From a phage: a stretch of DNA of 64,000 bases. A program made the position numbers and the translations under genes. Positions 46,440 to 48,130 of this stretch are shown here, in pieces (positions within the stretch are counted from its first letter, which is position 1; each line of letters starts with the position of its first letter). Below the pieces are notes generated by a model. That model ran no database searches and was not told the DNA's origin. It saw only the letters and a list, made by a program, of their open reading frames with translations. The stretch lies in the NCBI GenBank assembly GCA_021525805.1, contig GCA_021525805.1_3940.1; one strand, given 5' to 3'.

Positions 46440-46708
46440 AAGGCTACTGCCATCCTTCCATACCTCACCACGCAAGACCAAACCATGCCGTACTCCACTT
46501 CACAGGACCAAGCATCACTTAAAAATCCTCTTAGAAAGACTCTTAAGTGATGTAATCGAATTTTTATGTAGCTCCGATTAACTACCCATACCTCACCTTA
46601 CCACGCCGAACAGCACCGGACTATACCAGGCCATGCCGAACATTGCCGAGCCTCATTAAAAGACCCTCTTAAAGACCTTTTAAAAAGGAGCCTCCGAGGA
46701 GGCTACCT
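46440..46708. repeat. composite intergenic repeat block A (C/A-rich units + hairpin H1 at 46513-46552 + hairpin H2 at 46651-46688) with minus-strand terminator
   Basis: shares GGCTACT(G/A)CCATCC, CCATACCTCACC, hairpins TCACTTAAAAA.CCTCTTAGAA.ACTCTTAAGTGATG and CCTCATTAAAA.ACCCTCTTAAAGACCTTTTAAAAAGG with block 47820-48130. Confidence 0.7.
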
Positions 46709-46715
46709 AGCCAAC

Positions 46716-47162
46716 TTAGAAAGGTTTTCTACGTTGCTTGTTAATATTAGCTTTCATGGCAGCTAAATGATTTTGCTGTTCAATTAGTCGTGAACGTTCT
46801 TGATGGCTAAGTGCCATAGTGTTCACATTCTCAATTGCTTGAGTGGCTTGCTTTAAAGCTCGACCAATCTTACCAGACATTTTACGTTTTGCAATAGTTG
46901 CTTGATGCTTAGGTTCAACCACACGATAACCAACACCCATTGAAGCAACCAGATAAATCTTCTCTTCTTTAAGAAGCTTCTCAATAAACTTCTCAAGTCG
47001 GTTTAGACGTGTAAGTGCATAAGCCTTCATTTCATCTTCGTACTTAACAATGTCACCTTGATAAGTTGGCTTCACAATACCTAAGAAGGTATCCATCTCA
47101 GAGTGTGATACAGTGTCACCGTAACTAAACTTTGCTGCTAATGCTTTTGTATTCATAATCAA
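46716..47162 (-). CDS. hypothetical protein (repeat-flanked cassette gene 2)
   Basis: 148-aa ORF; terminator hairpin just downstream. Confidence 0.55.
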
Positions 47163-47761
47163 ACGTTACCTTCTGAAATAACTTCTACAGAAAAACGACC
47201 AAAGCGTGGACGCCAATCACCTACACCACAAAGGTTACCAGCATTTTCCAGAACCATCAGAAGTTCCTCTCTGGTGATTTGCTCTTCATCGAACATCAAA
47301 CCGAACTCTACAGACCAGTCACGGAAGATTGGACGGTAGCTCATAACTCGTGCTGTACCAATCTTAACAGACTTAGCATAGATAAAATCTGGATTCTTAG
47401 CAAGTTCTTGTGGGTTTGCTGGACAGTTCTTGATAGTCATTGGGAAGACTACATCTGTCAGCATAATGGCTCGGTCAATTACCTTACCAAGTTTGTTGAG
47501 TTTTGCACCAGACTTGATACAAGCCTCAATCATCTCACCGTTCATAACAAAACCTAGCTGCTCATCGTAGTAACAAGAGGTTACCAGTTGACTTTCTGCT
47601 AAGAGTGCATAGTCTTCGTCAGTCTTTTTACGTTTACTGGACAGAGACTTGTGATATTTTGTCAGAGGGTTTAATGGGTCTGACAACGTATCGTTATGGC
47701 TCAAGAAAGGACGAGTACCAGTGATTTTGATATTTAACAGTTTCATAGCATTTAGCTCCAC
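47159..47761 (-). CDS. hypothetical protein (repeat-flanked cassette gene 1)
   Basis: 200-aa ORF overlapping downstream gene by 4 nt. Confidence 0.55.
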
Positions 47762-47819
47762 ACTTTAGTTGATTGTTAAGTTGTTTGTAAAGAACCCTCA
47801 ACAGAAGACTCTTTAGAAA

Positions 47820-48130
47820 CTTGGTAGATTTTTAACGTGGCTACTACCATCCACCCATACCATACCGAACCTTACCTTACCAAACCAGACCGCGCCTTAC
47901 CAAACCAGACCAAACATTACTTTACCCTACCTCATTAAAAAACCCTCTTAAAGACCTTTTAAAAAGGTAAGTCTCATTTTAATGTAGATGAGACTAACTA
48001 CCCATACTGTACCGCACCTGACCCGACCTGACCAGACCTAGCATTACCGTGCCACACCGTACCGAACAGAACACTACCATACCTCACATCACTTAAAAAC
48101 CCTCTTAGAAGACTCTTAAGTGATGCTGGT
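47820..48130. repeat. composite intergenic repeat block B (tandem CCTTACCAAACCAGACC x2, hairpin H2 at 47930-47967, hairpin H1 at 48087-48125)
   Basis: same sub-elements as block A but H2 precedes H1. Confidence 0.7.

Follow-up and report, generated by a model that had tools for sequence, protein, structure and literature searches.

The stretch of phage DNA analyzed here (64,000 nt of contig GCA_021525805.1_3940.1, GenBank assembly GCA_021525805.1; hereafter, the window) very probably contains, at positions 46420–48183, a type II Viral Interference Programmable Repeat (VIPR) locus of the SUSP1 clade; the phage is a Felix O1-like myovirus. This is a rediscovery, since VIPR systems have already been described in a preprint dated June 2026, with Escherichia phage SUSP1 as the model (bioRxiv 10.64898/2026.04.26.720920), which we reached by a full-text search on phage pentanucleotide repeats. 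The 2-kb region matched 231 phage records at 80%–99% identity, mostly Escherichia and Salmonella Felixounavirus (best match KhF3, 95.5%).

According to the available text of the preprint, a VIPR system comprises vipr, encoding a minimal RAMP of ~20 kDa, and vap, with guide RNA (vrRNA) genes on both flanks. Each vrRNA consists of 9–16 YNNGG repeats and a structured 3′ tail; in SUSP1 they appear as RNAs of ~100 nt in small-RNA sequencing data from infected cells, and they are recovered together with purified Vipr. Double-stranded DNA is recognized through the NN dinucleotides, on either strand and with no PAM, one target base being skipped per unit. The guides of the SUSP1 clade converge on a satellite of E. 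coli, and the outcome is transcriptional repression, which vap1 enhances.

The genes of the region lie on the minus strand; along this strand, the predicted order starts with a sigma-70-type promoter and a pair of vrRNA genes, continues with vipr, vap, and a terminator, and closes with a second pair of vrRNA genes. Each vrRNA would comprise 11–17 YNNGG pentamers and end in a tail of ~35 nt that folds into a hairpin with a pseudoknot; a long G-U-rich hairpin (H1 or H2) lies 5′ of each vrRNA. By analogy with SUSP1, as reported in the preprint, Vipr would oligomerize along the pentamer tract, gripping the conserved GGY bases and presenting the variable NN dinucleotides, which would pair with double-stranded DNA in an NN-skip-NN-skip register; transcription of the target would be repressed, with Vap boosting the effect. 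The hypervariability of the arrays and the shuffling of modules are very probably the footprint of guide turnover.

An earlier note on the window had picked out two genes of no recognizable function between two blocks free of open reading frames (ORFs). Both genes were found as described (47159–47761 and 46716–47162), as were the blocks (46420–46704 and 47783–48125), while the products could be named: the larger is Vipr, a RAMP, and the other, judged by its position, is Vap1. The suggestion of accessory genes is right, in that the two form a cassette involved in inter-element conflict.

Guide arrays and cassette proteins

A CC dinucleotide recurring in phase every 5 nt was found in only four places of the window (46431–46520, 46561–46680, 47821–47955, and 47976–48105), and an equivalent scan for GG every 5 nt on the plus strand found none. 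Unit statistics were calculated over 582 units of 51 distinct modules from the window and its relatives, with 8–16 variable units per module. The plus-strand unit is R-C-C-N-N, with A (0.88) or G (0.10) at position 1, C at positions 2 (0.96) and 3 (0.77), and near-random bases at positions 4–5. Therefore, the minus strand reads NNGGY, where Y is U (0.88) or C (0.10), the G weights are 0.96 and 0.77, and NN is near random. Module lengths vary in multiples of 5. The C/A-rich motifs that the earlier note had reported as shared between the blocks are present (GGCTACTnCCATCC at 46442 and 47839, tandem CCTTACCAAACCAGACC at 47877–47920), and they form a strict 5-nt register, a feature that the note did not contain. 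The possibility that the repeats are ordinary terminators common in the genome did not hold, the pentamer register being confined to this locus within the window. Although the flanks are >90% identical among phages, the arrays are unalignable, and the register alone is kept.

On the strand that carries the genes, the four arrays have 11, 13, 15, and 17 units, the longest slightly exceeding the published range. The first predicted pair, in the direction of transcription, is vrRNA B2 (47968–48086), with 17 YNNGG units (48002–48086) and a 34-nt 3′ tail (47968–48001), and vrRNA B1 (47815–47929), with 15 units (47855–47929) and a tail designated L′-type. Downstream of the two genes lie vrRNA A2 (46553–46650), with 13 units (46586–46650) and a 33-nt tail (46553–46585), and vrRNA A1 (46420–46512), with 11 units (46458–46512) and an L-type tail. 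After the array, the tail reads GGGUAGUUA and then forms a 7-bp hairpin with CUAC in its loop. The B2 tail can form a hairpin of 7–8 bp whose CUAC loop is able to pair with an upstream GUAG, giving a pseudoknot, and the A2 tail hairpin (AAUCGGA/UUCGAUU) differs from the B2 tail stem by compensated changes. The A1 tail has GGCAG...CUGCC nested with UAGC(C)UUAU...AUAAGCUA, and the B1 tail has the stem UGGUAG...CUACCA; a second stem was looked for in the B1 tail and not found.

Among 18 variants, every cell of the tail hairpin is paired (100%), and covariation is seen in 3 of its 7 pairs; the covariation score was reached by none of 500 shuffles, and slid controls paired in 24%–35%. The GUAG-CUAC pseudoknot stem is invariant within the S-type tails and compensated between tail types: GGCAG/CUGCC in the terminal module of block 1, GGUAG/CUACC in the terminal module of block 2, and GUCG/CGAC in a satellite copy. 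Thus, the arrays end in a structured 3′ tail with a hairpin and a pseudoknot, as in VIPR systems, for which the preprint gives an invariable tail of ~40 nt.

Rfam contains no family for these RNAs, and pentamer repeats are not described in the genome papers of Felix O1 and UAB_Phi87. Current annotations label the array stretches "DR_4", "repeat_region", "promoter", or "possible binding site of StbAB"; the last, from the KhF3 record, was found to be without support. When IMG/VR was scanned for runs of seven perfect ACCNN units, >120 contigs were obtained, many with tandem modules of a short constant linker and 10–40 variable pentamers, and therefore the pentamer-array architecture is widespread. 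Tandem series of 7–11 modules were seen in the IMG/VR contigs L046 (4602–5049), L056 (1234–2440, minus strand), L131, and L138 (1046–1629). Their modules consist of a short constant linker (e.g., CCCATTAGCCTT or AAATTAAATTCATTAAACCATTCCTT) and 10–42 variable ACCNN units, and presumably represent other VIPR array architectures.

The vipr gene (47159–47746) encodes a 195-aa RAMP-fold protein, the putative vrRNA-binding effector, and vap (46716–47156), an accessory gene of the vap1 type, encodes 146 aa. Within the listed ORFs, translation probably begins at the ATGs of positions 47746 and 47156, because the alignment to the Protein Data Bank (PDB) entry and the annotation of phage wV8 both point to them. 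The vap ORF lies directly downstream of vipr and overlaps its stop codon. The earlier note had proposed homology searches and structure prediction for the two proteins, and for Vipr both gave matches. Translated from the ATG at 47746, it is identical in 190 of 195 positions to PDB 36pp_D, "SUSP1 Vipr protein" (E 1.7e-127; E 5e-78 in a profile search), and 97% identical to phiSUSP1 by tblastn; the 36pp entry contains six Vipr chains. A model from the single sequence had a pLDDT of 43, and one from an alignment of 77 homologues reached 96. The predicted fold matches only the CRISPR RAMPs Csm3, Cmr4, and Cas7. Vipr is a minimal Cas7-like RAMP, in line with the small (~20 kDa) RAMP homologue with an RRM core expected of type II VIPR.

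The vap product gave no match in Pfam, PADLOC, or PDB, and hence no fold or family sign of DNA binding. It belongs to PHROG 5926, to which no function is assigned; neither cassette protein received a function from Pfam, PADLOC, or PHROGs. It is 99%–100% identical to the vipr neighbor in SUSP1 and in all cassette-bearing relatives, and its position is syntenic with the SUSP1 operon of the preprint, whose available text gives vap1 as a predicted DNA-binding protein.

The hairpins were located where the earlier note had placed them: H1 at 46513–46552, 5′ of vrRNA A1; H2 at 46651–46688, 5′ of vrRNA A2; H2′ at 47930–47967, between vrRNAs B2 and B1; and H1′ at 48087–48125, immediately 5′ of vrRNA B2. 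Their swapped order on the plus strand (H1-H2 in block 1, H2-H1 in block 2) was likewise confirmed. A third hairpin, H3 (47783–47820), related in sequence to H1 and H2 and absent from the note, lies just upstream of vipr. H1′ may act as a leader, in processing, or as a spacer. As minus-strand RNA, H1 folds into 19 bp with 5 G-U pairs and H2 into 16 bp with 4 G-U pairs, which on the plus strand are A-C mismatches; because these 4–5 G-U pairs are gained there only, the minus strand is likely the functional one.

A sigma-70-like sequence at 48156–48183 (TTGACA-16-TATACT, 11/12 matches, minus strand) reads into block 2. We call it a promoter because of the 11/12 match and its conserved position in relatives, and it is annotated as a promoter in phage AYO145A; transcription from it would cover the upstream vrRNA pair and probably extend to vipr-vap. 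A conserved hairpin with an 8-bp stem at 48128–48167 (GGTGAGTA...TACTCACC) holds its −10 element; folding of this hairpin, as DNA or as RNA, could compete with promoter activity. The vap stop codon is immediately followed by a terminator-like hairpin (46689–46704; AGCCUC-CUCG-GAGGCU followed by CCUUUUU). The downstream boundary of the locus is a 19-bp inverted repeat (46378–46425) enclosing another promoter, TTGACA-17-TATTTT, which serves the next gene, the gp93 homologue at 45950–46333.

Matches to an E. coli satellite

Targets were sought in the element that the preprint terms a satellite, known here by its sequence. Using the tape-measure and baseplate DNA of the phage as a probe against 5,426 complete E. 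coli genomes, we found the family in 476–502 of them (~9%). It is an integrated element of ~10 kb with genes for a serine recombinase, a helix-turn-helix protein, a Dam-like methyltransferase, and tape-measure and baseplate proteins; the last two are 85%–88% identical in DNA to parts of the genes of this phage. Insertion occurred at no fewer than four sites, namely, yciI-tonB, yecN-yecD/DUF72, lafU-dinB, and ymdF-wrbA. Thirteen diverse copies (L154–L160 and L163–L168) were compared with the guides by our own implementation of the 1-nt-skip rule.

Three of the four guides match genes of these copies. All 20 NN bases of A1 match positions 16805–16833 of L156, in the serine-recombinase gene. A2 matches 22 of 24 NN bases, with 11 consecutive units perfect, at 9270–9304 of L159, in a small gene, and B2 matches 28 of 32 (29/34 with the first unit) at 8053–8099 of L159, as well as in L167 and L160. 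With the first unit included, A1, A2, and B2 score 21, 22, and 29, against maxima of 18, 20, and 23 over 200 order-shuffles. The match appears at a skip of 1 only; at skips of 0, 2, and 3 the same guides gave a background of 14–21. The matches fall on both strands, and the conserved first, tail-proximal unit (CCAUA) is unpaired with the target. From the coding-sequence coordinates, the skipped base is codon position 3 (the wobble position) in all three hits, which has a chance probability of ~0.04. There is no self-targeting within the window, where the best scores of the guides were only 14/20, 17/24, 19/28, and 20/32, equal to background.

The rule also held across the family: 52 of 72 distinct arrays from relatives reached an NN match of at least 80% at a skip of 1, against 2, 7, and 9 at skips of 0, 2, and 3. 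The A1 guides of the window and of SUSP1 differ by one NN base, and each perfectly matches a different satellite allele, which looks like guide-target co-variation. The copy L154 is matched by none of the four guides of the window, and the matches came with the diverse satellite alleles. Guide B2 gave no match in the exact-pattern scan of IMG/VR. For B1, no target was found in the 13 satellite copies, in the window, or in the scan of IMG/VR. A single B1 match among species-representative genome contigs, on an AT-rich contig of an uncultured Pelagibacteraceae, is likely due to chance because the pattern is AT-rich.

One satellite copy, L160 (E. coli PEC1009), carries a vrRNA-like array of its own at 6006–6090 on the minus strand, with ~11 NNGGY units, an L′-type tail whose pseudoknot stem shows the compensatory change to GUCG/CGAC, and then an intrinsic terminator; no such array was found in the other 12 of the 13 copies. 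The array agrees with the statement of the preprint, in its available text, that some satellites encode vrRNAs (bioRxiv 10.64898/2026.04.26.720920).

Cassette mobility, orphan arrays, and alternative explanations

Thirty-six related loci were compared over the stretch from the gp93 homologue to the DNA ligase gene, which is modular in relatives. The earlier note had proposed a comparison for presence and absence of the cassette, and it was informative: 12 of the 36 loci run from gp93 to the ligase with neither vipr nor vap. Vipr at ≥90% identity was found in ~118 phage records, compared with the 231 matching the region. Felix O1 (FO1a) and JN01 have one module and no cassette genes, while humlepung and UAB_Phi87 have two modules and no cassette genes. 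In the window, wV8, and KhF3, the two genes have two modules on each side (2 + 2); the counts are 3 + 2 in bumzen, 1 + 2 in AYO145A, and 3 + 1 in SUSP1. In the motif map of the SUSP1 locus, one module lies upstream and three downstream of vipr-vap along transcription, a layout also given from small-RNA sequencing in the available text of the preprint. The shuffled sub-units of the note stem from vrRNA modules that vary in number and order, with 1–3 per block among relatives. Relatives bearing the same genes without flanking repeats were not seen among those mapped.

Both cassette-less layouts equal the product of one homologous crossover. Recombination between H1 and H1′ in a window-like locus yields the Felix O1/JN01 form (L-array-H1-T), and recombination between the L and L′ tails yields the humlepung/UAB_Phi87 form (L-array-H2-S-array-H1-T). 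The cassette is mobile, or at least losable, and the layouts show that the vrRNA modules mediate its loss or gain. Vipr and Vap are 96%–100% identical across phages, compared with 88%–99% for the neighboring ligase and 32%–100% for gp93; the higher conservation of the cassette proteins fits horizontal movement of the cassette. Between the ligase gene and the vrRNA promoter, a 48-aa hydrophobic ORF (48191–48337, minus strand; PHROG 22006) is present in the window, humlepung, and UAB_Phi87; Felix O1/FO1a and JN01 lack it, and there the ligase gene directly adjoins the promoter hairpin.

The Felix O1-like phages lacking vipr have 1–2 arrays of the vrRNA type between the gp93 homologue and the ligase gene (loci L005, L006, L007, L008, L009, L011, L012, L016, L019, L021, L028, and L033, and L161 + L162 of SP116). 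The GGY register of these orphan arrays is close to that of the vipr-linked ones (CC 0.74 vs 0.78), and 9 of 14 match the satellite at ≥80%, with scores up to 25/26. Salmonella phage SP116 (KP010413.1) has two arrays at 59336–59570, and neither tblastn nor a profile search found a vipr or vap homologue in its complete genome. The main text of the preprint, as available, makes no mention of orphan arrays in helper phages. It seems rather doubtful that phages in which vipr-vap was lost or never present (e.g., Felix O1/FO1a, JN01, humlepung, UAB_Phi87, and SP116) keep guide-only loci that still function. If they do, the orphan vrRNAs might be loaded on Vipr from a co-infecting relative, in a cheater or shared-immunity arrangement, or might serve as decoys against the VIPR of rival phages. 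Recent recombinational loss of vipr is the simplest reading, because alleles of some orphan arrays also occur in vipr-bearing phages.

Several observations weigh against the assignment of the locus to VIPR, or against parts of it. vrRNA B1 has no identifiable target, its best match among the 13 satellite copies (20/28) being at background. The many vipr-less relatives that keep arrays indicate that arrays can persist apart from the protein. The Vap1 assignment rests on synteny because there is no detectable family or PDB match. The promoter is a consensus match only, and promoter-like sites are as frequent in the region as in its shuffles (6 vs 6.1). Production, processing, and Vipr binding of the four vrRNAs in this phage would follow by analogy with SUSP1. 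The source for the mechanism is a preprint, though a PDB entry exists, and its available text offers no explanation of a role for the H1, H2, and H3 hairpins.

Four other explanations were weighed against a VIPR locus. The repeats could be passive, serving solely as substrates for homologous recombination that moves the two-gene cassette, in the manner of the PeSL cassettes of T4-type phages. The presence/absence polymorphism with breakpoints at the repeated elements, the near-identity of Vipr and Vap on diverged backbones, and the promoter and stem-loops within the repeats would all fit. However, recombination substrates need the opposite of a strict GGY register with hypervariable NN positions; moreover, the NN positions give near-perfect gapped matches to satellite genes, and a cassette protein is a solved vrRNA-binding RAMP. 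In view of the guide evidence and the RAMP identity, recombination at the repeats is real but secondary, and passive repeats as the whole explanation are highly improbable. The idea of the earlier note that accessory genes are exchanged here by recombination therefore stands as far as variable presence and single-crossover layouts go; the blocks themselves are guide genes rather than recombination scaffolds. The note had alternatively offered paired regulatory or replication-origin elements. In one such explanation, the G-rich array transcript would form R-loops or two-tier G-quadruplexes, (GGN3)n, priming or marking a replication origin near the ligase and polymerase genes. A GC skew down to −0.78 on the plus strand, a strong promoter reading into the arrays, and the position within a replication gene module speak for an origin, but 23% of units lack the second G, which breaks the G-tracts, and the conserved Y after GG, the 5-nt length steps, the structured tails, and the satellite matches are left unexplained. 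Similar arrays also flank vipr homologues between tail genes of an unrelated mycobacteriophage. We regard the probability of an origin as practically negligible; the blocks are genes for the guide RNAs that the cassette protein uses, rather than regulatory sites, terminators, or an origin.

The leader of the Bacillus trp operon binds TRAP through 11 (G/U)AG triplets with spacers of 2–3 nt that carry no information, and acts in cis by attenuation. By the same token, (NNGGY)n could be a platform for a ring-shaped RNA-binding protein, acting as a leader, attenuator, or sponge without sequence-specific targeting; the conserved triplets separated by two free bases, the ~10–12 units per array, and the location of arrays in a long 5′ leader upstream of vipr resemble it. 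Yet the free bases match satellite genes at 85%–100%, and only in the xNN register, and the binder is known to be a RAMP that oligomerizes on RNA (PDB 36pp). Such a platform would have protein binding to GGY right and the function wrong, and we give it very little credence. Finally, the plus strand could be the functional one: its C-rich, G-poor (RCCNN)n tracts, interrupted by hairpins, would then load Rho as strong rut sites and shield the minus-strand operon from antisense transcripts. In lambda tR1, the layout is rutA-boxB-rutB, which the blocks resemble; the plus strand is C-rich and G-poor for 70–90 nt per array, and the convergent late genes end at 42.8 kb. However, the 4–5 G-U pairs of the hairpins are gained on the minus strand only, no credible plus-strand promoter is common to both blocks, and Rho requires neither an invariant A before CC nor a 5-nt register. 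The SUSP1 vrRNAs, according to the available preprint text, were detected by small-RNA sequencing and co-purify with Vipr, and the strand assigned here follows from the G-U pairs. Rho loading has next to no chance of being correct. The ideas of a TRAP leader, G-quadruplex, R-loop origin, and rut site were dropped because of the gapped NN matches to the satellite and the identification of the protein. On the same grounds we dropped a CsrA, Hfq, or GcvB-type sponge, pairing of GGU motifs with tRNA RCCA ends, arrays of T4/T7-type primase sites, BREX GGTAAG decoys, and telomere-like repeats.

Elsewhere in the window, an ORF-poor stretch of ~2 kb (no ORF of ≥120 aa between 2818 and 4837) contains dense short tandem repeats of 8–12 bp at 3267–4704. 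They include TCTGTTAAGAC (×9.9), AGGCTTGTTAGA (×5.2), and a 31-bp unit (×2.2), are unrelated to the pentamer arrays, and could mark an origin or a regulatory region. Twenty-two tRNA genes, typical of Felix O1-like phages, lie on the plus strand at 13890–18723, and an HNH/AP2-type endonuclease-like ORF (50717–51250) is located inside the replication operon.

Significance and comparison with known systems

VIPR represents a new way of recognizing DNA by guide RNA, through a gapped code and a minimal RAMP that may predate CRISPR. The locus in the window is one more copy of the characterized system of the SUSP1 clade. It adds an independent computational confirmation of the 1-nt-skip rule on guides that the preprint may not have used, and it provides an anatomy for annotating Felixounavirus genomes, in which these regions bear other labels. 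Orphan guide arrays are carried by many relatives, Felix O1 included.

The closest known system is the type II VIPR of SUSP1 (PDB 36pp). The two loci are alike in Vipr (97% identity) and Vap (99%), in the YNNGG tract with a hairpin/pseudoknot tail, and in their location between the gp93 homologue and the DNA ligase gene. In both, the guides match one target family, the E. coli satellite that carries tape-measure and baseplate genes of the Felix O1 type, and the single skipped base coincides with the codon wobble position. They differ in the modules (one upstream and three downstream in SUSP1, 2 + 2 here) and in guide sequences, one guide (A1) being common to both with a single NN change that tracks the target allele. 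The backbone is that of a Felixounavirus here and of a Suspvirus in SUSP1, where gp93 is only 34% identical.

A more distant locus was found in Mycobacterium phage LittleE (L171), where (NNGGC)n arrays, in sets of two and three, lie on the gene strand to either side of a Vipr homologue of 36% identity (gene 34) and its neighbor (2171–2395 and 3666–3980). Downstream of every array come a hairpin and a GGTTCGAGTCC element resembling a tRNA T-arm, at which neither ARAGORN nor Rfam called a tRNA. The upstream arrays overlap gene 35 ("hypothetical protein"), which is probably not a real gene.

The PeSL cassettes described in T4-type phages by Arbiol et al. in 2010 reportedly consist of promoter and stem-loop repeats that bracket small accessory genes, with recombination leading to their presence or absence; to our knowledge, PeSLs have neither pentamer arrays nor a cognate RNA-binding protein. 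The likeness lies in repeats bracketing small genes and in the polymorphism made by recombination. In contrast to PeSLs, the repeats here would be functional RNA genes with a coded variable part and a hypervariable core, a promoter-like site is found at the upstream block only, and recombination, although supported, is not their sole role. The TRAP-trp leader is similar in its conserved triplets bound by a protein oligomer, its non-conserved two-base spacers, and its roughly 11 units; unlike in TRAP, the spacers here would be the guide, and the outcome would be recognition of DNA in trans.

Class 1 CRISPR-Cas systems, with Cas7, Csm3, or Cmr4 assembled on CRISPR RNA, share with VIPR the variable and structured constant parts of the guide, the periodically interrupted pairing, and mobile elements as targets. 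Repeat searches found no CRISPR repeat-spacer array, and revealed the pentamer arrays and hairpins instead; no further cas genes were found at the cassette, which has two genes only and no PADLOC or Pfam Cas match, the rest of the window not having been screened. Vipr is described in the available text of the preprint as a single small RAMP without a second RRM (bioRxiv 10.64898/2026.04.26.720920). Unlike class 1 CRISPR-Cas, VIPR is phage-encoded, has neither a repeat-spacer array nor adaptation genes, and uses a non-contiguous guide, in which 2 of 5 RNA bases are read against 2 of 3 DNA bases.

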